Source: a virus (lineage: Duplodnaviria > Caudoviricetes). From it: DNA of 64,000 nucleotides. The translations under genes and the position numbers were made by a program. Shown here piece by piece: positions 9,938-59,028 of the stretch. Numbering within the stretch: the first letter of the stretch is position 1; each line of letters begins with the position of its first letter. The notes under the pieces are model-generated. The model was given only the letters and a program-made list of their open reading frames with translations. It had not been told where the DNA came from and made no database searches. The DNA is taken from IMG/VR virus record IMGVR_UViG_3300033068_001747; one strand, given 5' to 3'.

Positions 9938-10041
9938 TTAACAAAGATAGTGTATTTTTTTTTATTTATTTAATTTTTTGTTTCAATTATTTTTTGTACT
10001 TTTGTAAAACAAATAAGAAATCTACTATATATAGTAGTAAC

Positions 10042-10117
10042 GGTCTCATAGCTCAGGGGTCAGAGCGTCGGTCTCATAAACCGGGGGTCGTAGGTTCAAA
10101 TCCTACTGGGACCACCA
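10042..10117 (+). tRNA. tRNA with CAT anticodon (Met or Ile2), encoded CCA
   Basis: ggtctca/tgggacc acceptor, CTCATAA loop, GTTCAAATC T-loop, ACCA end. Confidence 0.9.
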
Positions 10118-10138: not shown

Positions 10139-10477
10139 ATGGAATTAAATGATATTAAAAAAGATTTGTATAAATCTAAAGCAATGGCAAAATTTTCGCA
10201 CTATGTTAGTGGTAACCTTTACTATACAGTAGAGTTATCTGACGGTGTTTACCAATTTCCTATTGCAACAGTTGAAACTTCATTAGAGTATATACACCCT
10301 GAAAATCAAGGTGTATATGACGATGAACCAACAATCGAAACATTACAGTTATCTTCTGACTTAGGTACAACTACTTTTGAAGTTGAAATGAAAGGTTCTG
10401 ATTTAAACAGGTGGATCGCCAAAGCTGTAAGTAATGGTGAATTTACTAAAATTCGTGAAGTTGTGGTTACTGAGTAA
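10139..10477 (+). CDS. Hypothetical phage protein; its 3' end may act as an Arg-sensing leader
   Basis: Well-formed ORF; Arg codon CGT six codons before the last residue overlaps a hairpin. Confidence 0.65.
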   Translation: MELNDIKKDLYKSKAMAKFSHYVSGNLYYTVELSDGVYQFPIATVETSLEYIHPENQGVYDDEPTIETLQLSSDLGTTTFEVEMKGSDLNRWIAKAVSNGEFTKIREVVVTE

Positions 10478-10500
10478 TACAACTTTACTTATTGTATATG

Positions 10501-10529
10501 ACCCTTACTTGAAAAAGTAAGGGTTTTTT
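10501..10529 (+). terminator. Intrinsic terminator or attenuator upstream of the ArgRS-like gene
   Basis: acccttactt-gaaa-aagtaagggt followed by a T run. Confidence 0.8.
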
Positions 10530-10555: not shown

Positions 10556-11734
10556 ATGAAAATAGATATAAATAAAATAAAAACAACACCATCAGAATTA
10601 GGATTCAACTTCTGTGTATTCGGAAAACCATCTGATGAAATTATAAATTGGTGCAATCACTGGAATTTAAAAATGGAAGATTCTGGTAAATACACAAATA
10701 TTATCTTAAATGATGATACTAAAATCTCTGAAATATTTAATCAACCTAATAAATATGATTATATAGATGGTTTTAGTCCAAACTTAAATAAGCATTTACA
10801 CGTTGGACATTTCTCTAACCTTGTACTAGCTAATGCTTTTCAAAAATTAGGACTAGGAAGTAAGTTTATTGCAATTTTTGGAGATACATTAGAAGGTTCA
10901 GTTCAAAAAGATGATGCTTTAAAATCATATTTTGAATATTGTAAAAACTTTAACTATAATGTAGATGAAATATTCTTTGCATCAGAAATGAAATTAAAAG
11001 ATGAAAGTTTATTAAAAGAAGGTGAAGGTACATACGAAGGTTCTAAAATATTCGATTTAGCAGACGAAAAATTAGTTGGTATAAAAAGTACTGGTTCTAC
11101 ATCTTACTTTTATCAAGATGTTGCTTTAGCAAGTAAATTAAACTCTTCTACATTGTATTTGACCGGTGCAGAACAAGATAATCATTTTAAATCGTTGAAG
11201 AAATTATTCCCAAAAACAAATCACATTGGTTTAGGTTTAGTTCAATTAGACGGTAAAAAAATGTCAAGTAGTGAAGGTAATGTTATTTACATGACCGAAT
11301 TTATAAATAGTTTACTACCATTATTCAATAATGATATAAAGTTAGTTTATAATATTATTGCTGGTCAAATACTTAAATCCAACACAACTTCAAGTAAGTC
11401 AATAGATACAAAGTTGATTGGTAATCCAAAATTATCTTTAGGTTTATATTTAAGTTATACTATGGCACATATTAAAAGCTGTGGTGTTGAAGTACAAGAA
11501 AAACAAGATTTTTATTCTAAACAACTAGAGTTTGCAGAGTTAAAAGCTAAATCTAATTTATCACCAAATATATTATTTGATGCTCTAATAAATCACTGTA
11601 AAAATATAAACAAGTTGTACGAAGTTTTGTACATAAAAGATAATGAAACAAATAAAAAGTTATTCTCTGACTTATTGACAGATTTACATATAGGTATGAA
11701 GAAAATTGGATTATTTCCAGTTGATAAAGTATAA
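10556..11734 (+). CDS. argS: Minimal arginyl-tRNA synthetase-like protein containing no Arg
   Basis: FSPNLNKHLHVGH (HIGH), KSTGSTSYFYQDVA, GAEQDNHF, KKMSSSEG (KMSKS), YLSYTMAH. Confidence 0.8.
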   Translation: MKIDINKIKTTPSELGFNFCVFGKPSDEIINWCNHWNLKMEDSGKYTNIILNDDTKISEIFNQPNKYDYIDGFSPNLNKHLHVGHFSNLVLANAFQKLGLGSKFIAIFGDTLEGSVQKDDALKSYFEYCKNFNYNVDEIFFASEMKLKDESLLKEGEGTYEGSKIFDLADEKLVGIKSTGSTSYFYQDVALASKLNSSTLYLTGAEQDNHFKSLKKLFPKTNHIGLGLVQLDGKKMSSSEGNVIYMTEFINSLLPLFNNDIKLVYNIIAGQILKSNTTSSKSIDTKLIGNPKLSLGLYLSYTMAHIKSCGVEVQEKQDFYSKQLEFAELKAKSNLSPNILFDALINHCKNINKLYEVLYIKDNETNKKLFSDLLTDLHIGMKKIGLFPVDKV

Positions 11735-11759
11735 AAAAAGTCCTTGAAAAAGGACTTTT

Positions 11760-12266
11760 TTATTTTATTTTTATATTTTCAAGGTCTTTGATAATATCAT
11801 CAATATACTTATTGTATTTTGTTGCATTTACATTTCTTTTTATAGAACTCTCAAAGAAATCTATTATACCTTCAACTTGTGAAGATATTTCTTCTGTTTT
11901 TTCTGATATATAAGGCATTCTAATATCTTCTCTTTCATAACTATCAAAAAATTCAGGGAATCTTTCAATAACTTTTTTTGCTGTTTCTTCTTCTTTACCT
12001 GGTTCACACTTAACTAAAAATCCTCTATCATAAGGTTCACCTATCAATTTAAGACCTAATCTTCTTAGTAATTTTTCAGCAAAGTCATAATCAACATCAC
12101 GACCTTCAGACCAGATAATTATTTCACCTTTTTGATATATTGGTGATCTTAATGACATAGTTTCTAAATTAGTAACGTCAATTGTTTCATCAGTATTTCG
12201 GGTTCTATAATCTGAACCACTTTGGTGAGCCGGAACGATACCTTCAAATAATTTTATGTATTTCAT
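11760..12266 (-). CDS. Hypothetical protein with N-terminal MKYIKLFE leader
   Basis: Leader motif and upstream AATATATA. Confidence 0.6.
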   Translation of the reverse strand: MKYIKLFEGIVPAHQSGSDYRTRNTDETIDVTNLETMSLRSPIYQKGEIIIWSEGRDVDYDFAEKLLRRLGLKLIGEPYDRGFLVKCEPGKEEETAKKVIERFPEFFDSYEREDIRMPYISEKTEEISSQVEGIIDFFESSIKRNVNATKYNKYIDDIIKDLENIKIK

Positions 12267-12352: not shown

Positions 12353-12595
12353 ATGTGGTATGTTTATATAGTAGAATGTAATGACTCAACTCTTTATACG
12401 GGTATTTCCAACAACGTGGAAAAAAGAATTGAAACTCATAATAAAAAGAAAGGTGCTAAGTACACAAAAACAAGAACACCTGTAAAATTAGTTTATCAAC
12501 AATCTTTTGAAACAAAATCTTTAGCATCAAAAGAAGAATGGAGAATCAAACAACTAACAAGAAATCAAAAAATTCTTTTAATAAACCAAAAATAG
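12353..12595 (+). CDS. GIY-YIG nuclease (UPF0213/YhbQ-like)
   Basis: YVYIVEC..LYTGI...R...HN..KGAKYT. Confidence 0.9.
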   Translation: MWYVYIVECNDSTLYTGISNNVEKRIETHNKKKGAKYTKTRTPVKLVYQQSFETKSLASKEEWRIKQLTRNQKILLINQK

Positions 12596-12612
12596 TTTGT
12601 ATATTTGCCATT

Positions 12613-13473
12613 ATGAAAACAATATTTCTGGACATAGATGGTGTATTAAACGTAGATTATGCAGATAGAGACCAATTTGGTCATATCTTCAGAGACGAGT
12701 ATGTCCAAAATTTAAAAGAAATTATTGAAAAAACTGGAGCCAAACTTGTTATATCTTCTACTTGGAAAGATAAAGGAATAGAACGAATGTTAGATTTATG
12801 GAAAGAACGTAATTTACCTGGTGAAATTATTGATATAACACCAGATTGTGTAGAAGTATGTGAGAACACTAACATAGTTTATTACGACCAAGTAAAACGA
12901 GGACATGAAATAAAACTTTGGTTAGATAGACACCCAGAAGTAACTCAGTATGTTATACTAGATGATATACAAGACTTTTTAGATGAACAACAAGTACATT
13001 TTGTAAATTGTTCAACAGGAGAACCTGTAAAACCTTGGAAATTAGGAATACCAGGATTAAAAGAAGAATGTAAAATTAAAGCAATAAATATATTAAACAT
13101 GAAAGATAAAATCGAATTCGCAGAATTTTTAGATATCCAATCAAAATTGGAAATCAAAGTAGGTGTTATTAAAACAGTAACAGATGTACCTAAATCAGAT
13201 AAACTTATCAAATTAGAAGTTGATTTTGGGGAAGATGAATTAAGAACTGTTGTAACAAACATTAAACCTTCATTAGGTGAATACTACGTAGAACAACTAA
13301 CTGGTGCAAGTTTACCATTCGTAACTAACTTAAAACCTGCTAAAATGATGGGTATTGAGTCAACTGCTATGATTATGCCAGGATTTTACGAAAATACAAG
13401 TAAGGTACTTGACTGGACAGGTAAATTATCTTTATCTACTATTGATTCTAAACCAGGAACTTCAATTCTATAA
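12613..13473 (+). CDS. HAD phosphatase (RNA-repair type) fused to a Trbp111/MetRS C-terminal OB-fold tRNA-binding domain
   Basis: IFLDIDGVLN, LVISSTW, YVILDD; then EIKVGVI...SDKLIKLEVDFG...NLKPAKMMGIESTAMI; start follows a TATATTTG promoter. Confidence 0.8.
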   Translation: MKTIFLDIDGVLNVDYADRDQFGHIFRDEYVQNLKEIIEKTGAKLVISSTWKDKGIERMLDLWKERNLPGEIIDITPDCVEVCENTNIVYYDQVKRGHEIKLWLDRHPEVTQYVILDDIQDFLDEQQVHFVNCSTGEPVKPWKLGIPGLKEECKIKAINILNMKDKIEFAEFLDIQSKLEIKVGVIKTVTDVPKSDKLIKLEVDFGEDELRTVVTNIKPSLGEYYVEQLTGASLPFVTNLKPAKMMGIESTAMIMPGFYENTSKVLDWTGKLSLSTIDSKPGTSIL

Positions 13474-20851: not shown

Positions 20852-21358
20852 ATGATAACAATAATAGCTGCAGCAGGAGAAAATAACTCTCTAGGTAAAG
20901 ACAACGACTTAGTTTGGCACTTACCAGACGACTTTAAAAGATTTAAACAACTTACATCAGGTAATTATATACTTATGGGTAGAAAAACATTTGAAAGTTT
21001 TCCTAAACCATTACCTAATAGAAAACATTTAATTATAACAAGACAGGAAAACTATTCTGTACCTGAAAATTGTTTTGTTTTTGATAGTATTTCTAAAGCA
21101 TTAGATTTTATTCCATTTACTGGAACTATTGAAAAACCAACTACAGATGTTTGGATAATTGGTGGTGGAGAAATCTATAAACAATCAATGGAAATAGCAG
21201 ATAGAATTGAACTAACAAGAGTACATTCCGAATTTGAAGCAGATACTTTCTTTCCAGAAATTGGTAAAGAATGGGAATTAGTAAATGAAGAACATCATAG
21301 TTCTGATGAAAAACACAAATACAATTTTACATATTTAACTTATGACAAAAGAATATAA
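20852..21358 (+). CDS. folA: Dihydrofolate reductase
   Basis: LVWHLPDD, MGRKTFES, PLPNR, IGGGEIY, ADTFFP. Confidence 0.96.
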   Translation: MITIIAAAGENNSLGKDNDLVWHLPDDFKRFKQLTSGNYILMGRKTFESFPKPLPNRKHLIITRQENYSVPENCFVFDSISKALDFIPFTGTIEKPTTDVWIIGGGEIYKQSMEIADRIELTRVHSEFEADTFFPEIGKEWELVNEEHHSSDEKHKYNFTYLTYDKRI

Positions 21359-21602
21359 AAAACAAATTGTAAAGGATTATCTTATCAAGCTAGAAAAGAA
21401 TCAAGCTAGAATTATAATAAATGGAATTGATGATTTTAGTGATCATCCTTTTAGACCTTGGGTTAAAATATTTTATAGTGTTATAAAAAGAAAAAATAAA
21501 TTATACACTAAAGTAAATAAAGTATGGTCTGAATATGGGACTTTTGATAGTTTATTTATCTCTGAAATTAGAGACCAACGATTAAATGATTTAGGTGTTT
21601 AA
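21342..21602 (+). CDS. Hypothetical protein with C-terminal tag
   Basis: Ends EIRDQRLNDLGV. Confidence 0.55.
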   Translation: MTKEYKKQIVKDYLIKLEKNQARIIINGIDDFSDHPFRPWVKIFYSVIKRKNKLYTKVNKVWSEYGTFDSLFISEIRDQRLNDLGV

Positions 21603-22291
21603 CGACGACCGTAATTTTTCACTTGTTGTTGAGTTCTATTATCTTTATCAGATGCTGCAAAATATTTAATTACATTTGGATCTTTAAAATTATCCATCAG
21701 TTTACTATTTCTTAGACTATGATCTCTAAGATCTAATCTTTTCATATGATGATAATCTCCAACGATTCTTTTAATATTCAATTCTGGATTTTCTTTATAT
21801 AACCAATAAGGAACTTTAACATAGAAAAACCCTTCTTTTTCAGGAACTTCTCCTAAAATAGCAATTTGTGAAGTTGGCAAAGTACCTTTATGAAAAGTAA
21901 CAGAGTAAGGTCTAGCATTATCTATAAAAGTTGCAGTATCTGCAGCAAATTCTTTAATATTTAAAATTTCAATTGACTTTTCATTTTGTTTAGTAATAAA
22001 GTAAGCTGCAATTATTGCTCTTTCATCTGCCAAATAAGTAGCTTTATTAAAATCAAACTCTATATCGTCTCTATAGATATGTTTATCCAATGGTTTATAC
22101 TCTGCATAAAACTCGGTAGGTTTTGTATACCACTTATGTTCTGGCTTATCAATTCTATAATAGGAAATATAACCTGGCTTATCAGGATTTAATATAAATA
22201 TTTTCTGACCTTTATCATTGATCCATTTTGTACCAAATTCTGGTAACTCCTGTGTTGATTCAAATATCTTAAACTTTTTTAGAAACTGCAT
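21599..22291 (-). CDS. Hypothetical protein with MQFLKKFKIFE leader
   Basis: Start reassigned to the ATG following AATATATA. Confidence 0.6.
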   Translation of the reverse strand: MQFLKKFKIFESTQELPEFGTKWINDKGQKIFILNPDKPGYISYYRIDKPEHKWYTKPTEFYAEYKPLDKHIYRDDIEFDFNKATYLADERAIIAAYFITKQNEKSIEILNIKEFAADTATFIDNARPYSVTFHKGTLPTSQIAILGEVPEKEGFFYVKVPYWLYKENPELNIKRIVGDYHHMKRLDLRDHSLRNSKLMDNFKDPNVIKYFAASDKDNRTQQQVKNYGRR

Positions 22292-23875: not shown

Positions 23876-24751
23876 ATGCAAAACACTTTAATGTACAATT
23901 CTCTAGTTCAAAAACTAAGAGAATTTTTTTTGGAAAAAAACTTCGTAGAAGTTCCAACACAACCTAGATTATCAATCTTAGCAGCTTGTGAAAACCCTCA
24001 CTCTGTTGCTACCTATGAATGGAATGGCTTAGTATGGCCTTTACCACAAACAGGACAAATGCACTTAGAAGTAGAACTTCTTAAAAATCCACAATGGGAC
24101 GGTGTATTCTGTATAACAACTTCTTACCGTGCTGAGAAAAATCCAATCCCTGGAAGACACGAAACAATTTTCCCAATGTTTGAATTTGAATCAAAAGGTG
24201 GAATCGAAGAATTGAAAAAACTTGAAGCTGAACTTTTAGTTTACTTAGGATTCGGAGAACCAGTTGAAAGAAAATATGACGATTTATGTGAAGAGTACGG
24301 TGGTGTACAAATCTTAGAAGACGAACATGAATCAAGAATGTGGAAAGAATTAGGACATTGTGTTTCTTTACAACAATTTCCACTAAGAACAAATCCTTTC
24401 TGGAATATGCTACCAGTTGGTGACGGTACATTCAACAAAATTGACATTATCTTATTCGGTCAAGAAACAATAGGATCTGCAGAAAGAAGTTGTGATGTTG
24501 CTAGAATGAGAGAACTTTTCCATACAATTGAAAATGGTGCTTATGCTGCTAAATTATTTGAATTATTTGGTCAAGAAAGAGTAGAGAAGGAATTAGAAGA
24601 CTTCTTTAGTTTAGATTTCATACCAAGATATGGTGCAGGAATCGGTCTAACAAGATTAGCAAGAGCAATGGAACTTCTAATCGAAGATAATCAAAAAGTA
24701 GCAGAAGAGTTAAATCTTCTAAATAAAAAAGTTACAGAAGTATATTCATAA
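23876..24751 (+). CDS. Class IIb aaRS catalytic domain only (AsnRS/AspRS paralog, possibly an asparagine synthetase); no OB-fold anticodon-binding domain
   Basis: Motif 1 REFF..NFVEVPT, motif 2 SYRAE...GRH...FPMFEFE, motif 3 GAGIGLTRL. Confidence 0.8.
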   Translation: MQNTLMYNSLVQKLREFFLEKNFVEVPTQPRLSILAACENPHSVATYEWNGLVWPLPQTGQMHLEVELLKNPQWDGVFCITTSYRAEKNPIPGRHETIFPMFEFESKGGIEELKKLEAELLVYLGFGEPVERKYDDLCEEYGGVQILEDEHESRMWKELGHCVSLQQFPLRTNPFWNMLPVGDGTFNKIDIILFGQETIGSAERSCDVARMRELFHTIENGAYAAKLFELFGQERVEKELEDFFSLDFIPRYGAGIGLTRLARAMELLIEDNQKVAEELNLLNKKVTEVYS

Positions 24752-31376: not shown

Positions 31377-32633
31377 ATGAATGATAATTATAAATACGTA
31401 ACTGTTATGTTTCCCTACCCTTCTGGTAGTGGATTGCATTGTGGACACTGGTACAATTATGCAATTATAGATAGTTACTGTAGATACTTGAGATATAAAG
31501 GTGAACAAGTTTTTCAACCATTTGGTTATGACTCATTTGGTTTACCTGCAGAAAACTACGCGAAAAAAGTGGGTAGAGACCCACGAGAAGTTACTTACGA
31601 AAATATAGAAAACTTTAGAGGACAGATGAAAAACATGGACACTCAATATGAGGAAATGTTGATTACTTCTGATCCTAACTACATTGAATACACACAATGG
31701 TTGTTTAAACAATTGTATGATAAAGGATTGGCTTATAAAAAAGATGGTGAAGTTGACTTTTGTAATAGTTGTGAAACCGTATTGGCTAGAGAACAAGTAA
31801 AAGATGGTAAATGTGATAGATGTTCAAATGAAGTTGAAAAGAAAACATTGAACCAATGGTATTTTAAAATCACTGATTATAAAGAAAGATTGATTGCAGG
31901 TTTGGACCATATAGATTTCCCTGAATCTACCAAGAAAGCTCAAAGAAATTGGTTGGAAAACCAACATGATTGGTGTGTATCAAGACAAAGAAGTTGGGGT
32001 TGTCCAATTCCAATTGAAGGAGAAACTGATACAATGGACACTTTTGTAGATAGTTCTATTTATACTATAATCTATTGTATTATGAAAGGTATTAAACCTA
32101 AACCAGTTGACTTGTATGTTGGTGGTTCTGAACATGCTTGTATGCACTTGATCTATATTAGATTTATTACTATGTTCTTGCATGACATTGGGTTTATTGA
32201 CTTTGAAGAACCAATTACTAAATTGGTACATCAAGGTATGATTTTGAACCAAGGTGAGAAAATGTCTAAATCTAAAGATAATGTAGTTAGTTTGGATGGT
32301 TATGATTCTGATGAAATTAGATTTTATTTGATGTTTATTGGACATTACTTCGATGGTGGTTCTTGGTCAGATGAAAATATAATTGGTATTAGAAGATTTA
32401 TAAATAGAATGAAAACTTGGTTGGATAAAACAGGTGAGGAAACTATTGATATAGAAGCTTTCAAAAAAACTATATTTGATTTTACAGATGCGTTTAAGTT
32501 TAACAAAGTAGTGAGTTCATTTATGATTTTGTTGAACCAAAATAAAAATAAAGCATTGACTCCAGAATGTAAAGAAGAATTGATTAAATTGATTGAGATC
32601 TATATGCCTGGTATTAGAGGAAAATTAAACTAA
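31377..32633 (+). CDS. leuS: Minimal leucyl-tRNA synthetase lacking the CP1 editing and C-terminal domains
   Basis: MFPYPSG.GLHCGH, GYDSFGLPAEN, DWCVSRQRSWG.PIP, DTMDTF, GGSEHA, KMSKS; 418 aa. Confidence 0.9.
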   Translation: MNDNYKYVTVMFPYPSGSGLHCGHWYNYAIIDSYCRYLRYKGEQVFQPFGYDSFGLPAENYAKKVGRDPREVTYENIENFRGQMKNMDTQYEEMLITSDPNYIEYTQWLFKQLYDKGLAYKKDGEVDFCNSCETVLAREQVKDGKCDRCSNEVEKKTLNQWYFKITDYKERLIAGLDHIDFPESTKKAQRNWLENQHDWCVSRQRSWGCPIPIEGETDTMDTFVDSSIYTIIYCIMKGIKPKPVDLYVGGSEHACMHLIYIRFITMFLHDIGFIDFEEPITKLVHQGMILNQGEKMSKSKDNVVSLDGYDSDEIRFYLMFIGHYFDGGSWSDENIIGIRRFINRMKTWLDKTGEETIDIEAFKKTIFDFTDAFKFNKVVSSFMILLNQNKNKALTPECKEELIKLIEIYMPGIRGKLN

Positions 32634-32673
32634 TCTACTATTTTTCAATATAAGATATGAGAGGGAGGATGAA

Positions 32674-33012
32674 ATGGATAAACATAAAACAAATTTTACT
32701 AAAGATAAAGTAGTAAATAAGAGAATAAACGACTTTTTAGATAAATTTTATATGAGAGACAAAGGTAGATTTTTTTGGAAAGAAAGATGGTTTTCAATAT
32801 GTAGTACACACCAAGAATATACAAAAGAATGCAAAACTTGTAATGTTGGATGTTGGGAGAACGTATGGAGAACCAATATAGAGAAAGTAATATTTATAAT
32901 CTCACCAAAATTATACAAATGGATCTTGAAATTTAAAAAAGTGCAGTTGATAAATATAATTGAAGAAAATGAACCCAAGAAATATTACAGAAGAAATCAA
33001 AGAAAAAATTAA
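32674..33012 (+). CDS. Hypothetical protein
   Basis: ORF with C-x2-H and CxxC. Confidence 0.45.
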   Translation: MDKHKTNFTKDKVVNKRINDFLDKFYMRDKGRFFWKERWFSICSTHQEYTKECKTCNVGCWENVWRTNIEKVIFIISPKLYKWILKFKKVQLINIIEENEPKKYYRRNQRKN

Positions 33013-33178
33013 AAACGCACATTACTATAAATTTGGTGCAGTATCACCAGATGGTTTTGTTTTGATCCCAAAAGAAACTTTTGAAAGATTAAAAGACTTT
33101 GATGTTTGGAAAGAATGGAAGAATAACCCAGAATCCTTAGAACAATTAGCAATTGAGGATTTAAGAAAACAAGAATAG
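32960..33178 (+). CDS. Hypothetical protein
   Basis: ORF ending in TAG immediately before the next ATG. Confidence 0.5.
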   Translation: MKKMNPRNITEEIKEKIKNAHYYKFGAVSPDGFVLIPKETFERLKDFDVWKEWKNNPESLEQLAIEDLRKQE

Positions 33179-33742
33179 ATGAAAAAATTATTACTACTAT
33201 TATTAATTGGACTAATGTCATTTACAACAACTAATAAAAGAATACTATTTGTCGGAGACAGTTTAAGTTGTTTTAATGGTGGTTGGCAAACACAAGTTGC
33301 ACAAGGACTAGGTAAGGATTATAAAAATGTTGCAAAGTTTGGTAAAACAACAGATTGGATGTTAAATAATCTAAAAGCTCACCTAGTAAATAATAATAGT
33401 AAATATGATACCATCTTTATTTATGGTGGTATCAATGATGCTTACTCAGGAAATAGTATAAATACTATTGAAAATCTACAGAAGATGGTTGACTTATGTA
33501 ATAAATACAATATAAAACCAATTATAATTGTGGGTTATAACCCATTAAAAGTTGCAAAAGGTAGAACAAAACAACGAGATAAATATATAAGTTTACAAAG
33601 AAAAATGTTAGATCTTAAAGGTTGTAAGATTATACCAATTGATAATTCTATAGATAGACGAGATACAGAAGATGGTATACATTTAAAAAGATCAGGACAT
33701 AAAAAATTTAGTAAATTTGTATTACAAAATTTGGAGATATAA
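33179..33742 (+). CDS. Secreted SGNH/GDSL hydrolase
   Basis: Signal peptide, FVGDSLS, GGIND, DGIHL. Confidence 0.85.
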   Translation: MKKLLLLLLIGLMSFTTTNKRILFVGDSLSCFNGGWQTQVAQGLGKDYKNVAKFGKTTDWMLNNLKAHLVNNNSKYDTIFIYGGINDAYSGNSINTIENLQKMVDLCNKYNIKPIIIVGYNPLKVAKGRTKQRDKYISLQRKMLDLKGCKIIPIDNSIDRRDTEDGIHLKRSGHKKFSKFVLQNLEI

Positions 33743-36746: not shown

Positions 36747-38795
36747 TTACTTTTTAAATTTAAAAAATTCATTTAATGGTTTAAGGTATCTAAATCCTTT
36801 TTTCTCAGTAACCGGTACTGCCTTACCATTTATTAAAATACTATTACTAGACTTATCATAATCCATTTTAACAGTTCCTTCTAACTCACCACCTAAGATT
36901 TCATCTGAAAGAGGATCTTCTAAGTAATGTTGAATTGCTCTTTTTAATGGACGAGCACCCATTTTTTCATCATATCCTTTATCAATCAATAAATCTTTGA
37001 AAGCAGTAGTTATCTCTAATGATAATTTTAAATCTTTTAACTTATTCTCAACTTTCTTAATCTCTATGTCAATTATCTTATAAACATTTTCTTTAGATAA
37101 AGAAGCAAATATAACAATCTCATCAATTCTATTGATAAACTCAGGTTTTAACCTTTTACTTAATTCTGCTTTAATTATTGATTTAGCATTTTCTTCTTTA
37201 ACTGCTGGTTTATCTGAACCAAATCCAACTGGTGTTGCCATTTGATTTACTGCACTCGCACCAATATTAGAAGTCATAACAATAATAGTATTTCTAAAAT
37301 CTACCTTTCTTCCTTCACCATCAGTTAAATGACCATCATCAAATATTTGTAACATGATATCCATTACACTAGGGTGTGCTTTCTCTAACTCATCAAATAA
37401 TATGATACAATAAGGTTTTCTTCTTACCTTTTCAGTTAGTTGTCCACCTTCTCCGTATCCAACATAACCTGGAGGTGACCCAATCATTCTAGCAACATTA
37501 TGTTTCTCAGCATATTCAGACATATCAACTCTAATCATTGCATCTTCTGAACCAAATATGTTTTTAGCTAATGTTTTTACTGTGTGAGTTTTACCAGTAC
37601 CAGTACTTCCTAAGAAAAGGAATACACCAGCAGGTCTATTAGGATCTTTTAATCCTGCTCTATTTCTTCTAATAGATTTTGCAATTTTTGTAACTGCTTC
37701 ATCTTGTCCGATAATTTGCATCTTTAATTCATTCTCTAAACCTAAAAGACGTTTACCTTCATCACCAGTTACTTGTGTAGGAATACCAGTTTTTAAAGAA
37801 AGAATTCTTTCAACATCTTCTTTAGTAATAACGATTCTCGGCATTTCGGGAGTATCTTTCTTTAATTGAATTATTCTATCAACCATTTCCTTCTCACGTG
37901 GTCTTAAATCACCTGCACCTTGATAATCTTGAGCCTTTAAAAGTTCATCTTTTCTATTTCTTAATGCCAATAATTGTGTTTCTAATTCAGCAATTTCAGG
38001 TGGTGTATTTTTCTTAGCAGAGATTCTCATTTTAGCACCAACCTCATCCATTAAGTCAATTGCCTTATCAGGGAAGTATCTATCTGAAATGAATTTACCA
38101 GATAAATTAACACAAGCTTCAATGGCATCATCATTAAAAGTAACTTTGTGGAAATCTTCATAGTTCTTTTTAATTCTCATTAAAATTTCAATAGTTTCCG
38201 TCACTGATGGCTCTTCAACATTTACTTTTTGGAAACGTCTTTCTAATGCACCATCTTTCTCTAAAGAGTTTCTAAACTCATTATTAGTTGTAGCACCAAT
38301 TAAACGCATTTTACCTCTTGCTAATGCTGGTTTAATTTGATTTGCCATATCAATTGGCACAGTTTTATTTACCATTAAGTGAATCTCATCAATAAATAAT
38401 ATAATATCTGGATTTGCCTCAAGTTCATCCATTATAGCCTTAACTTTAGCTTCTAATCCACCTTGACCAGCCATAATAGTACCCATATCAAGTGCGATAA
38501 TTCTTTTACCTTCTAATGATTCTGGACAATCTTCACTAACCATCATTCTAGCAATACCTTCGATAATTGCTGTTTTACCTACACCAGGTTCACCAATAAT
38601 AACAGGGTTATTTTTATTTTTTCTGGCTAAAATCCAGATTACTTGTTCAATCTCTTTTTGTCTACCGATTACAGGATCAAGTTTATCTTCTTCGGCTAAC
38701 TTAGTCATATCAACACCATACTTATCTAAAAATGGAGTTGGCGCACTTTGTTTCTCACCTTCTGTAAACTCTTCGTAAACTTTCAATTTTTTCAT
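36747..38795 (-). CDS. clpC: ClpC/ClpB-type double AAA+ ATPase lacking the N-terminal domain
   Basis: GEPGVGKT, LFIDEIH, GSTGTGKT, LFDELEKAH, GARPL; VGF ClpP-docking loop. Confidence 0.9.
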   Translation of the reverse strand: MKKLKVYEEFTEGEKQSAPTPFLDKYGVDMTKLAEEDKLDPVIGRQKEIEQVIWILARKNKNNPVIIGEPGVGKTAIIEGIARMMVSEDCPESLEGKRIIALDMGTIMAGQGGLEAKVKAIMDELEANPDIILFIDEIHLMVNKTVPIDMANQIKPALARGKMRLIGATTNNEFRNSLEKDGALERRFQKVNVEEPSVTETIEILMRIKKNYEDFHKVTFNDDAIEACVNLSGKFISDRYFPDKAIDLMDEVGAKMRISAKKNTPPEIAELETQLLALRNRKDELLKAQDYQGAGDLRPREKEMVDRIIQLKKDTPEMPRIVITKEDVERILSLKTGIPTQVTGDEGKRLLGLENELKMQIIGQDEAVTKIAKSIRRNRAGLKDPNRPAGVFLFLGSTGTGKTHTVKTLAKNIFGSEDAMIRVDMSEYAEKHNVARMIGSPPGYVGYGEGGQLTEKVRRKPYCIILFDELEKAHPSVMDIMLQIFDDGHLTDGEGRKVDFRNTIIVMTSNIGASAVNQMATPVGFGSDKPAVKEENAKSIIKAELSKRLKPEFINRIDEIVIFASLSKENVYKIIDIEIKKVENKLKDLKLSLEITTAFKDLLIDKGYDEKMGARPLKRAIQHYLEDPLSDEILGGELEGTVKMDYDKSSNSILINGKAVPVTEKKGFRYLKPLNEFFKFKK

Positions 38796-39262: not shown

Positions 39263-40105
39263 ATGGTAACAAGAGTAGCACCCTCTCCAACTGGTTTTTT
39301 CCACTTAGGAACTTTAAGAACTGCACTACTTGCTTGGCTTCAAGCAAGAGCTAATAACGGTACATTCATTTTAAGAATTGATGATACCGATCAAGAAAGA
39401 AATAAACCAGAGTGGATTGATTATATCTACGAGCAAATGTCTGAGTTTGGTTTAGATCACGACATTACTTTCAGACAATCTGAGAGATTAGACCGTTACA
39501 GAGAAGTAGCTGAGAAAATCGGTACTAAAACTGAGAATGGTTACGAGTTAGATATGGGAGAGTACTCAATGGTTATTCTTAGAAATAACGGGTTCCCTAC
39601 ATATAACTTCTGTTCAATTTTAGATGATTATGACTATGATGTAACTAATATCATTAGAGGTGTTGACCACATTGCAAATGAGGCAAAACAACGTATTATC
39701 TGGGATAAGATTTGTGAAGTAGAAGGAGATAAAACATTTCCAGTAATTACACATGCTGGATTACTTTTCGACGGTAATGCTAAATTATCTAAGAGAAAAG
39801 GTAATGGTACAACAGAAGATTACAAAGATTACAGTAGAGCTGCTATCTTAAACTGGTTGGTTAAATTTGGTTGGTCACACCCAGATCCATTGTTTGATAA
39901 GAAACACCCTACTTTAAGTATAGACGAAATGATTGCTCTTTTCAACGAAGGAAACATTTCAGATAGAAACTGTAAAATCGATAAAGCTAAATTAGAGTTC
40001 CTAAATAAAAAATGGAAAGCAATTGAGAAAAGAGGTGGTGCAGGTTCAACAAAAGAAATCGTAGTTGAGTCAAAACTTTTAAAGTTTGACGAGTTTCAAA
40101 AATAA
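39263..40105 (+). CDS. gltX: Minimal glutamyl-tRNA synthetase-like protein without anticodon-binding domain
   Basis: TRVAPSPTGFFHLG, LRIDDTD, GFPTYNF, IIRGVDH, KLSKR; 280 aa. Confidence 0.85.
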   Translation: MVTRVAPSPTGFFHLGTLRTALLAWLQARANNGTFILRIDDTDQERNKPEWIDYIYEQMSEFGLDHDITFRQSERLDRYREVAEKIGTKTENGYELDMGEYSMVILRNNGFPTYNFCSILDDYDYDVTNIIRGVDHIANEAKQRIIWDKICEVEGDKTFPVITHAGLLFDGNAKLSKRKGNGTTEDYKDYSRAAILNWLVKFGWSHPDPLFDKKHPTLSIDEMIALFNEGNISDRNCKIDKAKLEFLNKKWKAIEKRGGAGSTKEIVVESKLLKFDEFQK

Positions 40106-43800: not shown

Positions 43801-43832
43801 ATTGTAGATATGAATGTCTTTTTATCTACAAT
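43801..43832. promoter_or_regulatory. Inverted repeat, candidate Rrf2 operator upstream of nrdD
   Basis: attgtagata-N12-tatctacaat perfect 10-bp arms. Confidence 0.45.
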
Positions 43833-43852
43833 TAAAAAAATTATATAAAACT

Positions 43853-45631
43853 ATGTTTACAAAATTAGATGAATTACAAAAAAAGGTTAAAAAGGATTTT
43901 ATAAAGAATTATATAAACTCCAAGAATGCAGCAAGTGGATCATTATTTGATCCAAATTCAAATGTTACTTCTAAAAATATTGCAACTTTAGAAGCAGAAT
44001 TAAACAAAGATATTAACATACAAGTTAATAGGTCTCTTATCTATTCTAAAATAGAAGAAAATTTTGGAACAGAAATGGCAGACTCATATATTAAAGACAT
44101 TGAAGACCACTTAATATATGTTCATGATGAGACATCATTGAAGCCATATTGTGTGAGTATCTCAATGTATCCGTTGTTATTAAATGGTTTAAGTGGCTTA
44201 GGTGGTGAGTCGAAAGCACCTAAACACTTAGCAAGCTTTTGTGGTTCATTTATTAACCTTTTATTCTCAGTGTCATCACAGTTCGCTGGTGCAGTAGCTA
44301 CTGTGGAATTCTTACTTTACTTTGACCACTTTGCAAGATTAGATTATGGAGATGACTACTTAACAACACATAAAAAAATAATAGAGAATGAGTTACAACA
44401 TGTAGTTTATGCTATTAACCAACCTGCCGCGGCAAGAGGTTATCAATCAGTATTTTGGAATATATCTTTATATGATATTGAATATTTTAATTCAATGTTT
44501 GGTGACTTTGTTTTTCCTGATATGGATAAACCAAACTATAGTAGCTTAGATAAACTACAGAAGTTTTTCATGAAATGGTTTAATAAAGAAAGGGAAAATG
44601 CGGTATTAACATTCCCTGTAATCACAGCAGCTATGTTGACTAAAGATAAAAAAGTATATGATGTTAACTTTGGTAACTTTTGTGCAGAAGAGTTAAGTGA
44701 AGGTAATTCATTCTTTATATATCAATCAGAAAGTGCAGATTCATTAGCATCTTGTTGCAGACTAAGAAATGAAATATCTGATAATACTTTTAGCTACTCT
44801 CTTGGTGCTGGTGGTGTATCCACTGGTTCTATAAATGTGATAACTATTAATATGAATAGACTTATTCAAAAAGATATTAGTCTAGATGATTTATTAGATA
44901 GAATATATAAATATCAAATGTCATACCGATATTTAATACAGGATTACTTAGATGCTAAGATGTTACCTGTTTATGATTCTGGTTTTATATCAATTGATAA
45001 ACAATTTCTAACAATAGGTATAAATGGTATGGTTGAATCCGCAGAATATCTTGGAATTGAAATATCAGATAATGATAAATATAAAGACTATATCAATAGT
45101 AGATTGAAAACAATATATGATAAAAATAAATTAGCAAAGATTGAATATGGTTGCATGTTTAATACTGAATTCGTCCCTGCTGAAAATTTAGGAGTAAAAA
45201 ATGCTAAGTGGGACAAAGAAGATGGTCTATTCGTAACAAGAGACTGTTATAACTCATACTTTTATATAGTTGAGGACGAGTCACAGAATGTAGTAGATAA
45301 ATTCTTTTTACATGGAAATGATTATATAAAATATCTAGATGGTGGTAGTGCATATCATTGTAATTTAGAAGATTATCCTACAAAAGAAGGATTCTTTAAG
45401 CTATTAAATGTATCAGCTTATACTGGTTGTAATTATTTTTGCTTTAATATAAAAGTAACAATATGTAATGATTGTGAACATATAAATAAAAAGACTGAAT
45501 ACCATTGTGTGAAATGTGACAGTAGAAATGTAGATCACGCTACAAGAATAATAGGATATCTTAAAAGAATAACTAGCTTCAGTAAAGATAGACAAAAAGA
45601 AGCAGCAAAAAGATATTACAATCAAAAATGA
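43853..45631 (+). CDS. nrdD: Anaerobic (class III) ribonucleotide reductase
   Basis: PYCVS, SCCRL, PAENL, CNDC..CVKC, RIIGYL glycyl-radical motif. Confidence 0.95.
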   Translation: MFTKLDELQKKVKKDFIKNYINSKNAASGSLFDPNSNVTSKNIATLEAELNKDINIQVNRSLIYSKIEENFGTEMADSYIKDIEDHLIYVHDETSLKPYCVSISMYPLLLNGLSGLGGESKAPKHLASFCGSFINLLFSVSSQFAGAVATVEFLLYFDHFARLDYGDDYLTTHKKIIENELQHVVYAINQPAAARGYQSVFWNISLYDIEYFNSMFGDFVFPDMDKPNYSSLDKLQKFFMKWFNKERENAVLTFPVITAAMLTKDKKVYDVNFGNFCAEELSEGNSFFIYQSESADSLASCCRLRNEISDNTFSYSLGAGGVSTGSINVITINMNRLIQKDISLDDLLDRIYKYQMSYRYLIQDYLDAKMLPVYDSGFISIDKQFLTIGINGMVESAEYLGIEISDNDKYKDYINSRLKTIYDKNKLAKIEYGCMFNTEFVPAENLGVKNAKWDKEDGLFVTRDCYNSYFYIVEDESQNVVDKFFLHGNDYIKYLDGGSAYHCNLEDYPTKEGFFKLLNVSAYTGCNYFCFNIKVTICNDCEHINKKTEYHCVKCDSRNVDHATRIIGYLKRITSFSKDRQKEAAKRYYNQK

Positions 45632-52655: not shown

Positions 52656-55178
52656 ATGAGGAAATTATTATTAATTCTAATCGGACTTTTTAGTATGACG
52701 GTATCAGCTCAAACTAAAGAGAAAGTAGAGGACCAAACTACTAAAAAAGACTCGGTCGAAAATGTTAAAGAACTACAAGAAGTTGTAGTTGTAGGTAGAG
52801 GAGTTATTGACCTAGCAAAAGAAAGAAAAACTCCTATTGCGGTTTCAACAGTAAAAGCGGTTGAAATACAAGCAAAAGTTGGTACAGCAGACGTTACACA
52901 AGCTTTGGTAAACACACCATCTGTTTATGTTGCAGGACAAGCTGGAGGTTTTGGTGACTCAAGAATCTCAGTTCGTGGGTTCCAACAAGACAATACTGCT
53001 TTCCTATTAAATGGTCAACCAATCAATGGTATGGAAGATGGTAAGATGTACTGGTCTAACTGGTCGGGTATGTCAGATATTGCAAATGCAATACAAATTC
53101 AAAGAGGTTTAGGTTCTTCTAAACTAGCAATCTCATCAGTCGGTGGTACAGTAAACTTTATTACAAGAGCAACTGATATGAGACAAGGTGGATTTTCATC
53201 AGCAGGTGTTGCTAATGATGATTATTTAAAAACAACAGTTGGATATAATACAGGTATTATGGAAAACGGTTTCGGTGCAAGTGTTATGTTATCACATTGG
53301 CAAGGTGATGGTTATTTTGATGGAACAAAAGGTCAAGGTCAAAACTACTTTATCTCATTCGGTTATAAACCAAATGCAAAACATAACTTTAACTTCTTAA
53401 TTACTGGTGCACCACAGCAACACGATCAAAACTTCACAAAAAAGATTTCTGATTACTTAGGTTTCGGCAGAAGATATAATAACAATTACGGTTATTTGAA
53501 TGGTCAATATATATCAGAAAGAGTGAATTTTTATCATAAACCAGTTGCAAACTTTAACTGGGATTATAAAATAAACGATAAGCTAGACTTATCAACAGTT
53601 CTTTATGCATCTTGGGGTAGAGGTGGAGGAACTGGTAACTACGGTAGTGGGAAGAAAAGTGTTTCTCAATTAAATCCTTATACAGGTCAAATGCAAAACA
53701 CTTATATTGATTTTAATCAGATTTATGCTAATAACTCAGCAGATGCTGATGGTATTGGATCTAGTTCAAATTATGCAATTAGATCATCTATGAATAATCA
53801 TGAGTGGTATGGTATTGTGTCAAACTTAAAAAATAAGTTGAATGATAATTTAACATTAAACTTAGGAGTTGATTTAAGAACATATAATGGTGATCACTAT
53901 AGACAAATTACTAATTTTATGGGGTTAAATGGATGGACTGAAAGTAGATTTTTAAGAGATAATAATCATGTTATTCCTAACCCAAATACATTACCAAGTG
54001 CAACCATTACAGTTAATCAATCATTTAGTACTAACCCGTGGTCTGCATTCTTTAATAAAGCAGATGATAGTCAAAAAATTGACTATGACTACAGTGAAAC
54101 AATTTCTTACGGTGGAGTCTTTGGACAATTAGAGTATTCTAAAGATAACTTCTCAACTTTCTTTCAAGGAGCAGTTTCTAATCAAACACACCAAAGATTT
54201 GACTACTATGACTATCAAAAAGAATTTCAAAATTCTGAAAAAGTTTCTAATGTAGGATATAATGTAAAAGGTGGTGCCGCATATAACTTCAATGAAAAAC
54301 ACGTTGTTTATGGAAATGCTGGATATTACTCAAGACAACCATATCATGATAACATTTACTTAAACTTTACTAACCAAGTAAACCCATTAACACAAAACGA
54401 GAAAGTTTTAGGACTAGAAGCTGGTTATACATTCAAATCAAAAGTTTTTACTACTAGCATAAACGCTTATAGAACAACTTGGGAAGATAGAGTCGTAACT
54501 ACATCAAATGTTCAATCTACAAATGGAGTTATTGGAACTACACCAGTTTCTGTAGGTGATGTCATCTTCACATCCAATCAAGGTGTTAGACAAATTCATT
54601 CTGGTGTTGAGTTAGACTTTATATTAAAACCTGTTGCTAAATTAGATATTAAAGGATTTGCATCAGTTGGAAACTGGGAATATAGTGGAAGTGCTACTAG
54701 TAGAAAATTTGATGAAAACTTAAATTTACTAACTGAAGCTGAAACAAATTTAGATGGTGGAAAAGTAGGTGATGCTGCTCAAACAACTTGGGGATTAGGT
54801 GCTAAATATGAATTGTTAACAAGATTCTCTATTGATGCTGATTGGAGAAACTATGATAATTTATATGCAAATGTAGTTGCTAAAGATAACTTACAGTTAC
54901 CTTCTTATGACTTAGTAGATATGGGTATATCATATAAAATGTTAGTAGGTAAAGACAAACAAAATTCTGTAAACTTTAGATTAAATGTAAATAACTTATT
55001 TGATGAAGTTTATTTATCTGAGTTAACTTCTAATATTAAAACTGATGCATTTATCAGTGGAAACTCAGGACCTACATATCAATCTGCAGGTAGAGTTTAC
55101 AAAGGAATCGCTGATGGAAACCAAGGTTTCTTTGGATTTGGAAGAACTTGGAACTTAACATTAAGATATAATTTCTAA
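52656..55178 (+). CDS. TonB-dependent outer membrane receptor
   Basis: LQEVVVVG TonB box, plug motifs (ISVRGF, IQIQRG), C-terminal GRTWNLTLRYNF. Confidence 0.93.
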   Translation: MRKLLLILIGLFSMTVSAQTKEKVEDQTTKKDSVENVKELQEVVVVGRGVIDLAKERKTPIAVSTVKAVEIQAKVGTADVTQALVNTPSVYVAGQAGGFGDSRISVRGFQQDNTAFLLNGQPINGMEDGKMYWSNWSGMSDIANAIQIQRGLGSSKLAISSVGGTVNFITRATDMRQGGFSSAGVANDDYLKTTVGYNTGIMENGFGASVMLSHWQGDGYFDGTKGQGQNYFISFGYKPNAKHNFNFLITGAPQQHDQNFTKKISDYLGFGRRYNNNYGYLNGQYISERVNFYHKPVANFNWDYKINDKLDLSTVLYASWGRGGGTGNYGSGKKSVSQLNPYTGQMQNTYIDFNQIYANNSADADGIGSSSNYAIRSSMNNHEWYGIVSNLKNKLNDNLTLNLGVDLRTYNGDHYRQITNFMGLNGWTESRFLRDNNHVIPNPNTLPSATITVNQSFSTNPWSAFFNKADDSQKIDYDYSETISYGGVFGQLEYSKDNFSTFFQGAVSNQTHQRFDYYDYQKEFQNSEKVSNVGYNVKGGAAYNFNEKHVVYGNAGYYSRQPYHDNIYLNFTNQVNPLTQNEKVLGLEAGYTFKSKVFTTSINAYRTTWEDRVVTTSNVQSTNGVIGTTPVSVGDVIFTSNQGVRQIHSGVELDFILKPVAKLDIKGFASVGNWEYSGSATSRKFDENLNLLTEAETNLDGGKVGDAAQTTWGLGAKYELLTRFSIDADWRNYDNLYANVVAKDNLQLPSYDLVDMGISYKMLVGKDKQNSVNFRLNVNNLFDEVYLSELTSNIKTDAFISGNSGPTYQSAGRVYKGIADGNQGFFGFGRTWNLTLRYNF

Positions 55179-55927: not shown

Positions 55928-56173
55928 ATGGAACAAAAAGAACTTAACTACGGAATTATGCCAGGAGAAACTTGGCGACACTACAAAGGTGGTAACTACA
56001 AAATTATCACTCTAGCAAATCATACTGAAACTAAAGAACCTTTAGTTATTTATCAATCTATATCATTTGGATCAATCTATGCAAGACCTTTATCAATCTG
56101 GTGTGATACCGTTGAAAATAGAAGAGGTGGTTTGGAACCAAGATTTGTAAAAGTTGAAAGTGAAAATGAGTAA
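55928..56173 (+). CDS. DUF1653 family protein
   Basis: WRHYKGGNY...HTET.E.LVIYQ...YARPL. Confidence 0.85.
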   Translation: MEQKELNYGIMPGETWRHYKGGNYKIITLANHTETKEPLVIYQSISFGSIYARPLSIWCDTVENRRGGLEPRFVKVESENE

Positions 56174-57541: not shown

Positions 57542-58204
57542 ATGTACAAAAAATTAAAACTAAAAACAATGGAAATTAAATTAAAAAATACCTATAAAGG
57601 AACAAGAATAATATTTGCTGAAACTGCAAAAAGAAAAAGAACTATTTTGAACCAAATGATTGAAATACTTGAATCATATGGTTACCAAGAAATGATGATT
57701 CCTGTCATTCAATTATCTGATACATTTGCTAAAAAAGTTGGTGAAGAAAACAATAACATGATGTACACTTTTACTGATAGAGGTAATAGAGACATCTGTT
57801 TAGCACCAGAATATACTGCTGTTGTGCAACAACTTGCAAATGAAACATTCAAAATGACTAAAGATGTAAAACTCTTTTACATTGGAGAATGTTTTAGAGG
57901 CGAAAGACCTCAGGCATCAAGATGGAGACAATTTACACAATTTGGTGTTGAAGTAATCAATCCAAGAAAAGATTACACAGATGAATTGTTAGAAATAGCA
58001 AAGAAACTTATTGAAATAGTCACAGATAACTATGAAGTTAATTTAGATGCAACTAGAGGACTTGACTACTATACTGGTGGTAAAGGATTTGAGATTTCTT
58101 GTCCACAATTAGGTGCAGCCAAACAAATTTGCGGAGGTGGCTCTTATCAAGGAGGAGTGGGACTGGCTATAGGTGTGGATAGATTACTGAATTGTAACCA
58201 ATAA
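57542..58204 (+). CDS. hisS: Minimal histidyl-tRNA synthetase-like catalytic domain containing no His
   Basis: KGTR, LAPEYTA, FRGERPQASRWRQFTQFGVE, RGLDYYTG, GGGSY, G.AIGVDRL. Confidence 0.85.
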   Translation: MYKKLKLKTMEIKLKNTYKGTRIIFAETAKRKRTILNQMIEILESYGYQEMMIPVIQLSDTFAKKVGEENNNMMYTFTDRGNRDICLAPEYTAVVQQLANETFKMTKDVKLFYIGECFRGERPQASRWRQFTQFGVEVINPRKDYTDELLEIAKKLIEIVTDNYEVNLDATRGLDYYTGGKGFEISCPQLGAAKQICGGGSYQGGVGLAIGVDRLLNCNQ

Positions 58205-59028
58205 GTATTTTTAACCCTTTTTTGTAAACCTCTACAACATAAAGATATTTTATATGGATCTAGATTGGTGAGTTTAGCTGCTTCATAGTAACTATTAAAC
58301 TCACCAATTTTAGTACCATCCAAATAGAAACCTACTACCTTTGACTTCATTGAGTCATGTGATTTTATATTTCTTGTATTAATCTCTTCTTTACTTAGAT
58401 AGTCTCCATGATTCTTAAATATATGAGATTTCACTATATTAAACTCTCCACTTATACAAAGTCTAATTGATTTTGCTTTAGTATTAGTTTCTCTTTCCGC
58501 TTCTCTTATAGACTTGAAGGTTTTTAAGAATTTACCATTCTTGTCATAAAAATCTACCTTTATACATCTTTTACTATTTTTAAGTTTAAGTATTGTCTCT
58601 TCTGACAGTTTATTTCCTAAATTTATAGTTCTTAGTTTTTTCCTTGTCTCTTCACTTACTTTTTTACCAGTATTACTAAGTCTAATCTTTTCTATTGTTT
58701 CTCTTGAACATCTAATTTTACCATAAGGACTTGTTGGTTCTATATTAAATCCAAAATTTTTATCATGTGTATTTAAAATATTACACCACCAGTTTTCCAT
58801 ACTAGGTAAAGATTCAATTAAGTAATCATCTATTATATCAAATGAAAAATTACCATTATATTTGTTCCAAGAATTTTGCATATGTATATTAGGATGCCTA
58901 CACTCTCTTAGCTGTGATTTATGTTTAGAAAGCCTTTCTTTACAATTTACACTCCTGCCTATATAGTGCTTATTACTTGATAAACAAGTTATTATATAGA
59001 TACCAGAAATTTTATTTTTATATGCCAA
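58147..59028 (-). mobile_element. GIY-YIG homing endonuclease with NUMOD3/NUMOD1 repeats
   Basis: SGIYII...HYIGRS; SEETRKKL; FKSIREA. Confidence 0.85.

Follow-up and report, generated by a model that had tools for sequence, protein, structure and literature searches.

The window analysed here, a stretch of 64,000 nucleotides of viral DNA, is part of the 132-kb IMG/VR record IMGVR_UViG_3300033068_001747 and carries a gene for a miniaturised arginyl-tRNA synthetase (ArgRS) whose coding sequence (10556..11734, (+) strand, ATG start, 392 amino acids) contains no in-frame Arg codon. The absence is conserved among close homologs, and a parallel depletion, in each case of the residue matching the specificity of the enzyme, was found in other aminoacyl-tRNA synthetases of related megaphages. 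We consider it probable that the gene encodes a working ArgRS purged of Arg codons, which could be made under a shortage of charged tRNA-Arg, and that it exemplifies a design shared across the clade.

A preliminary description of the sequence had reported that the 392-residue translation is devoid of arginine and, assuming an arginine frequency of about 4%, had put the probability of a chance absence at about 1e-7. Both statements were borne out. The protein contains 0 Arg, together with 45 Lys and 5 Cys, and the mean arginine content of the window open reading frames (ORFs) of at least 150 amino acids was measured at 4.00%, so that 15.7 Arg residues are expected and the probability of finding none in 392 residues is 0.96^392 = 1.1e-7 (binomial 10^-6.9). 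No other ORF of the 132-kb contig lacks a common residue (Cys and His aside) at P<1e-4. The absence is a property of the reading frame and not of the DNA itself. Counts of the six Arg triplets are 0 in frame 0 of the ORF, 3 in frame 1 and 43 in frame 2, and one base change would be enough to turn any of 160 of the 392 codons into an Arg codon. An alternative genetic code was ruled out, since table 11 gives a normal reading of the neighbouring ORFs, whose Arg content is about 4%.

Identity and conservation of the arginine-free protein

Pfam and PHROGs alone gave no classification of the protein, the sub-cut-off scores being spread over ArgRS, TyrRS and MetRS, with the weaker TyrRS and MetRS matches located around the KMS loop. 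A PF00750 (ArgRS catalytic domain) match is, however, precomputed for many of its close homologs. Searching the PDB with a profile built from 30 homologs returned nine structures at an expectation value (E) <=1, eight of which are ArgRS (best 1IQ0, E 2e-4), the ninth being a marginal TyrRS match (E 0.98). The ArgRS matches span the ..SPN..K.lHvGH block, the G..tsY...D block and the MS...G loop, and they align HVGH of the window protein with HIGH of 1IQ0 and 4ZAJ. Comparison by hhalign with an alignment of seven canonical ArgRS proteins, all containing PF00750 and DALR_1, gave a probability of 100% (E 4e-42) over residues 23-392, with one large deletion after HIGH. The AlphaFold (AF2) model of the protein has a predicted local distance difference test (pLDDT) value of 92 and, when compared with the PDB by Foldseek, its top 15 matches were all ArgRS (E 6e-16 to 4e-13, template-modelling score 0.65-0.72), followed by CysRS. 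Identity as a CysRS (Foldseek E 8e-13) was rejected, as the PDB profile matches are nearly all ArgRS, the arginine-pocket residues are conserved and the protein has 5 Cys as against 0 Arg.

The motifs expected of an ArgRS could be placed along the gene. The arginine-binding DGFSPN (D71, N76), K79 and the HIGH motif HVGH (residues 82-85) lie at 10766..10819 (+), followed by the arginine-binding YFYQD (Y184, D188) and EQDNHF (Q207, H210) at 11105..11188 (+), whose aligned counterparts in canonical ArgRS are the DG..Y...D and EQ..HF blocks and which are invariant in 120/120 close homologs. The latter sample, used throughout, comprises the 120 best database homologs, at 60-92% identity. A KMSKS-type loop, KMSSS (residues 235-239), is encoded at 11258..11272 (+), and YTMAH (residues 301-305; 11456..11470 (+)) marks the start of a DALR-type anticodon-binding domain. 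Residues D71, N76, K79, H82, H85, Y184, D188, Q207, H210 and K235, which, going by published ArgRS structures, form the arginine pocket and the ATP site, are kept in all 120 close homologs, in most distant relatives and in canonical ArgRS. The HIGH, KMS and arginine-pocket residues are thus invariant in the sample. From about residue 296 to 392 the protein aligns by hhalign with the DALR_1 region of canonical ArgRS and the model is helical, while Pfam DALR_1 gave no direct match. The N-terminal Arg_tRNA_synt_N (Add1) domain is absent: only about 65 residues precede the core, no Pfam match to the domain was obtained, and template column 64 is the first one covered by hhalign. The large insertion in the catalytic domain of canonical ArgRS is also deleted. 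Based on the profile and fold matches and on the conserved pocket, the protein is therefore a miniaturised ArgRS without the Add1 domain and one insertion and, as far as sequence and fold show, it is specifically an ArgRS, in agreement with the preliminary description, which had called it ArgRS-like.

The same description had pointed to HVGH-FS, KMSSS and YTMAH as motifs in which a normally conserved arginine is replaced, and these were found at residues 82-88 (HVGH-FSN, nt 10799-10819 (+)), 235-239 and 301-305. The arginines of the HxGHxR, (K)MSxR and YxxxR motifs correspond to S87, S239 and H305. Position 87 is Arg in 6/6 canonical ArgRS and in 39 of 53 distant relatives, as opposed to Ser in 120/120 close homologs. 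At position 239, Arg is found in 6/6 canonical and 48/53 distant proteins and Ser in 119 of the 120 close ones, and at position 305, Arg likewise occupies 6/6 and 48/53, the close homologs having His (110), Ser (8) or Lys (2).

Counting arginine in homologous proteins had been proposed as a check, and the close homologs proved not to have a normal content: 101/120 contain no Arg and the other 19 contain 1-6. The total is 41 Arg over some 47,000 residues, and 27 of these occupy columns with a Lys majority. Full-length tblastn matches to the window protein were confined to a pair of uncultured phages, LR745206.1 (635 kb) and LR756504.1 (636 kb), whose orthologs are 75% and 51% identical to it, respectively, and contain 0 Arg each. 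The nonsynonymous and synonymous divergences from these two orthologs (dN/dS 0.047/0.72 and 0.178/1.36, i.e. 0.07-0.13) indicate synonymous sites near saturation and a tightly constrained protein, yet no Arg codon has been fixed.

The wider family, which occurs in metagenomes and whose members have about 390-420 amino acids, was represented by 1245 relatives at E<1e-3 among 1.8 billion cluster representatives. In the tree, the window protein nests inside this mini-ArgRS family with 100% support. One half of the family has ordinary arginine contents (6-28 residues) and the other half reduced ones; the window protein belongs to a clade with 99% support that is almost wholly Arg-free, and a second Arg-free pair branches elsewhere. 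The tree shows a progressive loss of arginine. In the low-Arg distant members, positions 239 and 305 are mostly still Arg, while Ser already occupies position 87 in 12 of 17. Since the conserved arginines at 87, 239 and 305 were displaced, selection against Arg would have been strong enough to override functional conservation.

Cognate depletion and leader peptides in related megaphages

Because the gene beside the ArgRS ortholog of LR745206.1 looked Asn-free, the whole record was scanned, every ORF being checked for missing common residues with annotation ignored, and Pfam served to identify the strongest zero-count outliers. In 12/12 synthetase genes of this phage, no other amino acid is as strongly depleted as the cognate residue, which eight of them lack entirely; the runner-up residue never exceeds 10^-2.2. 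Zero counts were obtained for the IleRS (735 amino acids, 65 Ile expected), AspRS (433 amino acids, 33 Asp expected), AsnRS (392 amino acids, 27 Asn expected), ValRS-like (443 amino acids, 25 Val expected), PheRS (359 amino acids, 18 Phe expected), ArgRS-like (392 amino acids, 14 Arg expected) and AlaRS-like (248 amino acids, 8 Ala expected) proteins, and the MetRS-like gene (32195-33568 (-), 457 codons) starts with GTG and has no ATG in frame. The remaining four contain 1 Gln (GlnRS, 13 expected), 1 Gly (GlyRS-like, 15 expected), 6 Glu (GluRS, 33 expected) and 18 Leu (LeuRS-like, 34 expected). The pattern is repeated in LR756504.1 with partly different enzymes, including a LysRS-like protein (L028 1498-2634 (-), 378 amino acids) with 1 Lys where 32 are expected, a ThrRS-like protein (L002 3207-4367, 386 amino acids) with 1 Thr where 22 are expected, a MetRS-like protein with 2 Met (10 expected) and a GlyRS-like protein with 3 Gly (14 expected).

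Three other ORFs that lack one common residue entirely were noticed in LR745206.1, namely a 176-aa protein with a tRNA_bind domain and 0 Tyr (21133-21663 (+)), a 198-aa protein of no family with 0 Gly (57976-58572 (+)) and a 311-aa protein of no family with 0 Ala (239576-240511 (+)); these could belong to the system as components not yet recognised.

Evidence at the codon level came from the window itself. A LeuRS-like gene without editing domain (31377..32633 (+), 418 amino acids) keeps 26 Leu codons, 24 of which are TTG, a codon that makes up 10% of Leu codons genome-wide (P = 3e-22), and in the LR745206.1 ortholog all 18 Leu codons are TTG. Leucine being kept but restricted to TTG, selection would act at decoding and not on the chemistry of the folded protein. 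The window HisRS-like gene (57542..58204 (+), 220 amino acids) contains 0 His where 3.4 are expected, and its LR745206.1 counterpart also has 0 His; taken alone, the window gene is weak evidence. Two more synthetase-like genes are present in the window, one encoding a 280-aa catalytic domain of the Glu/Gln family by itself (GluQRS-like, 39263-40105 (+)), with GAG in 13 of 21 Glu codons as compared with 22% genome-wide, and the other a 291-aa class II core of the Asp/Lys/Asn type without anticodon domain (23876-24751 (+)). No depletion of the candidate cognate residue was seen in either of them.

The synthetases of LR745206.1 are found beside matching tRNA genes, about 60 of which are clustered next to cognate enzymes. 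The AsnRS-ArgRS operon closely follows three genes each for tRNA-Asn and tRNA-Arg, the GlnRS gene comes after three for tRNA-Gln, and Gly and Ala tRNA genes flank the GlyRS-like and AlaRS-like genes. In LR756504.1, tRNA-Met(CAU) directly precedes the ArgRS-like gene and is itself preceded by two tRNA-Arg genes, so that both complete megaphages have tRNA-Arg genes a short way upstream of their ArgRS-like gene. ARAGORN also reported, in the phage tRNA arrays, tRNA-like genes whose anticodon loops are irregular, with a call of four bases ('gtag') and calls of two bases, at L011 7364-7437, L011 19836-19923 and L002 2385-2460.

Several of these units are preceded by short ORFs rich in the cognate codons. 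Between the last tRNA-Arg gene and AsnRS of LR745206.1 there is a 16-codon ORF containing Asn-Asn-Arg-Asn-Arg, followed by a strong terminator hairpin. The region lies at L010 40375-40475; in coordinates of the record, leader and terminator take up 390375-390481. When the first arm was masked, the 3' end of the leader ORF paired with the 5' arm of the terminator, forming a computed antiterminator, and the whole has the classic layout of an attenuator. Leaders followed by a terminator were likewise found before the IleRS gene (382047, four consecutive Ile), the ValRS-like gene (35709 (-), five Val in seven codons), the PheRS gene (614897 (-), four Phe in five codons), the LeuRS-like gene (404831, four Leu in a short run) and the AspRS gene (336643, two adjacent Asp). 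Six synthetase transcription units of this phage thus stand behind a cognate leader, each with a GC-rich hairpin and T-run, and a conserved TAtaTTTGTA-like putative promoter motif precedes these leaders. In LR756504.1, the ThrRS-like gene is preceded by a Thr-rich leader with terminator and by a tRNA-Thr gene.

Around the window ArgRS gene, the motif TAnnTTTGTA (Bacteroidota -7 type), a putative promoter of which the window contains 21 sites against 11.9 expected and which is also the motif before the LR745206.1 synthetase leaders, occurs at 9997..10006 (+), before a tRNA-Met (CAU) gene (10042..10117 (+)) that heads a probable transcription unit. It is followed by an ORF of 112 amino acids without Pfam match and with 2 Arg codons (10139..10477 (+)), which is probably co-transcribed with the ArgRS gene, and by a terminator-like hairpin with T-run (10500..10525 (+)) located 30 nt before the ArgRS start codon. 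The relative L055, a 640-kb contig whose homolog is 92% identical to the window protein, has an equivalent upstream ORF and conserves the hairpin. No promoter-like site was found between the hairpin and the ArgRS start. Downstream, a two-way terminator-like hairpin (11734..11761) separates the ArgRS gene from a convergent gene (11760-12266 (-)).

Explanations for the missing arginine and relation to known systems

In the explanation that we favour, the ArgRS has kept its Rossmann catalytic core, arginine pocket and DALR-type anticodon domain, and selection would have stripped every Arg codon from its mRNA, including those for the three family-conserved arginines. With no Arg codon to be read, ribosomes could complete the protein even with little or no charged tRNA-Arg, and the enzyme that is to relieve the shortage would be independent of its own product for its synthesis. 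The same would hold across the clade, phage synthetases avoiding their own amino acid or, in the case of leucine, all but one rare codon; they adjoin matching phage tRNA genes, and several of the synthetases are presumably switched on by leader-peptide attenuators composed of cognate codons. The preliminary description had inferred strong selection for synthesis without any Arg-tRNA, a proposal now supported by the depletion of 12/12 LR745206.1 synthetases, by the restriction of the LeuRS-like genes to TTG and by the Asn/Arg leader. The shortage might originate in the demand of an AT-rich, AGA-heavy phage proteome (AGA represents 85% of its Arg codons), in a host response or in a shut-off imposed by the phage.

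Several observations speak against this explanation. The PF00750 score of the window protein, 20.6 bits, lies under the gathering cut-off of 23.3, and the loss of three conserved arginines may, judging from the alignments, mean impaired or altered catalysis. The window ArgRS gene is without an Arg-rich leader, and its upstream hairpins gave no computed antiterminator: an Arg-sensing attenuator using the 3' end of the upstream ORF, where two hairpins exist (z -6.9), is not supported, as the terminator still formed when the first arm was masked and no antiterminator was predicted. Arg-rich leaders were not found before the ArgRS-like genes of three other relatives either, and their upstream contexts vary; the constant feature is therefore the Arg-free coding sequence, not an attenuator. 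No tRNA-Arg gene was detected on the 132-kb contig, itself part of a genome of likely about 640 kb. Finally, the depletion has exceptions, since a Glu/Gln-family synthetase of LR756504.1 (263081-264682, 533 amino acids) contains 40 Glu and 12 Gln and is undepleted, and the GluQRS-like genes are also undepleted in their cognate residue.

A shortage of another kind would be created if the phage or a host defence abolished host charging or tRNA-Arg, along with other tRNAs, and phage pairs took their place, the Arg-free gene then serving to bootstrap decoding and not to meet a graded shortage. The arrays of about 60 tRNA genes adjoining cognate synthetases would suit such a takeover, as would a depletion that is complete (zero) and more than just low, and the protein with HAD_SAK_2 and tRNA-binding domains encoded 800 nt downstream of the ArgRS gene; a passage of Al-Shayeb et al. 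2020 (PMC7162821) moreover describes a huge-phage CRISPR spacer directed against a host glycyl-tRNA synthetase gene. Leader-peptide attenuators imply, however, a shortage that is graded and sensed, and the analysis identified neither a nuclease nor an inhibitor directed against the tRNA-Arg or ArgRS of the host. The phage tRNA-Arg genes inspected have A20 after G18G19 in 4 of 5 cases and C35, and thus look ordinary, giving no sign of a pair orthogonal to the host ArgRS. A takeover of this type seems to us rather unlikely. We attach a similarly low probability to the idea that tRNA arrays, cognate-free synthetases and leader sensors make up a self-contained module that rebuilds aminoacylation from zero, be it by demand-sensing or by takeover; in its strongest form, host charging would have collapsed first, through the phage or a host defence, and the cognate-free genes would restart decoding for phage genes only.

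That the protein is a repurposed ArgRS paralog which does not charge tRNA (a sensor of arginine or tRNA-Arg, or a tRNA-binding factor) and lost its arginines by relaxed catalytic constraint appears improbable. The missing family-conserved arginines, N-terminal domain and insertion and the sub-threshold Pfam score would be accounted for, and the other truncated synthetase-like genes of the window (the GluQRS-like gene and the 291-aa class II core) are likely non-canonical, but relaxed constraint predicts random change and not the exclusion of one type of residue. The dN/dS values and the invariant HIGH, KMS and pocket residues also contradict it, and full-length canonical synthetases, such as the 735-aa IleRS, have been purged of their cognate residue likewise. 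Arg-specific modification systems occur in phage-host conflicts, and a total absence of Arg would mean total immunity, so that avoidance for reasons of protein chemistry (escape from ADP-ribosylation, from tagging by arginine phosphorylation or from Arg-specific proteases) was also considered. It is very improbable, given that other synthetases each lack a different residue matching their own specificity, that LeuRS-like genes keep leucine yet restrict its codon to TTG, and that the neighbouring phage proteins have a normal Arg content. As for chance or compositional drift, the low GC (28%) does depress the general arginine content, which falls below 1% in a few ORFs; at the measured frequency of 4.0%, P is nevertheless about 1e-7, zero recurs in 101/120 homologs and down to 51-60% identity, and Arg triplets are frequent out of frame, which refutes this scarcely credible explanation.

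A working ArgRS made without arginine, as we propose, can be set beside several known systems. With canonical ArgRS (PF03485, PF00750 and PF05746; 1F7U, 1IQ0, 4Q2T), the window protein shares the class I Rossmann core with HIGH and the Lys before it, the arginine-pocket residues (Asp/Glu and Asn of ..SPN.., Tyr...Asp, Gln), a KMS-type loop and an alpha-helical DALR-type C-terminal domain opening with a YT...S motif. It differs in its length, 392 amino acids instead of about 530-620, in the missing Arg_tRNA_synt_N domain and deleted insertion, and in being without any Arg, including those conserved in HxGHxR, KMSSR and YTxxR. The metagenomic mini-ArgRS family has the same length and domain layout; about half of it retains, in addition to ordinary arginine, the three conserved ones that the window clade has purged.

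Transcription attenuation by leader peptides is known for synthetase and amino-acid operons of E. coli, among them pheST/pheM, thrL and hisL. The leader, antiterminator and terminator of the LR745206.1 AsnRS-ArgRS operon, and the analogous leaders before five other synthetase genes, resemble them. Unlike these, the megaphage leaders are on a phage, are multivalent in the case of Asn and Arg and are combined with cognate-free coding sequences, and none was seen before the window ArgRS.

According to the cognate-bias hypothesis, amino-acid biosynthetic enzymes are poor in their own product, an example being TrpA without Trp (Alves & Savageau 2005; Fasani & Savageau 2014, PMC4209129). The reasoning is alike, in that a protein restoring a supply should not need the very species that is lacking, which avoids a catch-22 under starvation, and the window ArgRS shows the bias fully, with 0 Arg against 15.7 expected and 101/120 homologs at zero. 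That work, though, concerned cellular biosynthetic pathways and statistical tendencies, whereas here viral tRNA-charging enzymes are involved and the bias is absolute, down to the choice of codon. Arginine pathways in fact had a high cognate bias in the biosynthesis survey (PMC4209129). A full-text literature search yielded no description of cognate-free synthetases or of phage synthetase composition, only the cognate-bias papers on biosynthetic enzymes. The passages on synthetases in Al-Shayeb et al. 2020 (PMC7162821) say nothing of composition and only suggest that those of huge phages charge phage tRNAs; in a marine megaphage paper (PMC9723777), the word 'synthetase' does not occur. The Arg-free ArgRS is part of a design rule of megaphage translation genes that is apparently undescribed.

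Such a rule would carry the cognate-bias hypothesis beyond biosynthetic enzymes, where it describes a statistical tendency, to tRNA-charging enzymes, where it becomes absolute, as illustrated by a 735-aa IleRS without Ile or by a LysRS-like protein whose single Lys contrasts with a lysine-rich proteome. It also offers a candidate answer to the question why huge phages carry many synthetases, which could have been built for expression when the matching charged tRNA is lacking. An ArgRS that seems to dispense with all Arg, the three conserved ones included, would be relevant to enzyme mechanism and to translation systems that are minimal or use a reduced alphabet, and the missing residue or codon provides a simple predictor, from sequence only, of the specificity of divergent phage synthetases.

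Genome of origin and neighbouring genes

LR745206.1 and LR756504.1 belong to the megaphage set of Al-Shayeb et al. 2020 (PMC9723777). The window is likely a piece of a low-GC (28%) megaphage of roughly 640 kb, the host of which is probably a member of the Bacteroidota.

Downstream of the ArgRS gene (12353-13473 (+)), an ORF resembling GIY-YIG nucleases overlaps the start of the gene for the 311-aa protein with HAD_SAK_2, an RNA-repair-type HAD domain, and tRNA-binding domains; the pair is also present near the ArgRS gene in L055. Further along the window, several host-like genes were observed, encoding a ClpB-type double AAA ATPase (36747-38795 (-)), the anaerobic ribonucleotide reductase NrdD (43814-45631), a SusC-like TonB-dependent receptor (52656-55178) and an adenylosuccinate synthetase (56166-57446). 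The GC of the window climbs to 0.39 at 50-52 kb. The host-like genes may be the reason for the provirus label that the record bears in IMG/VR.

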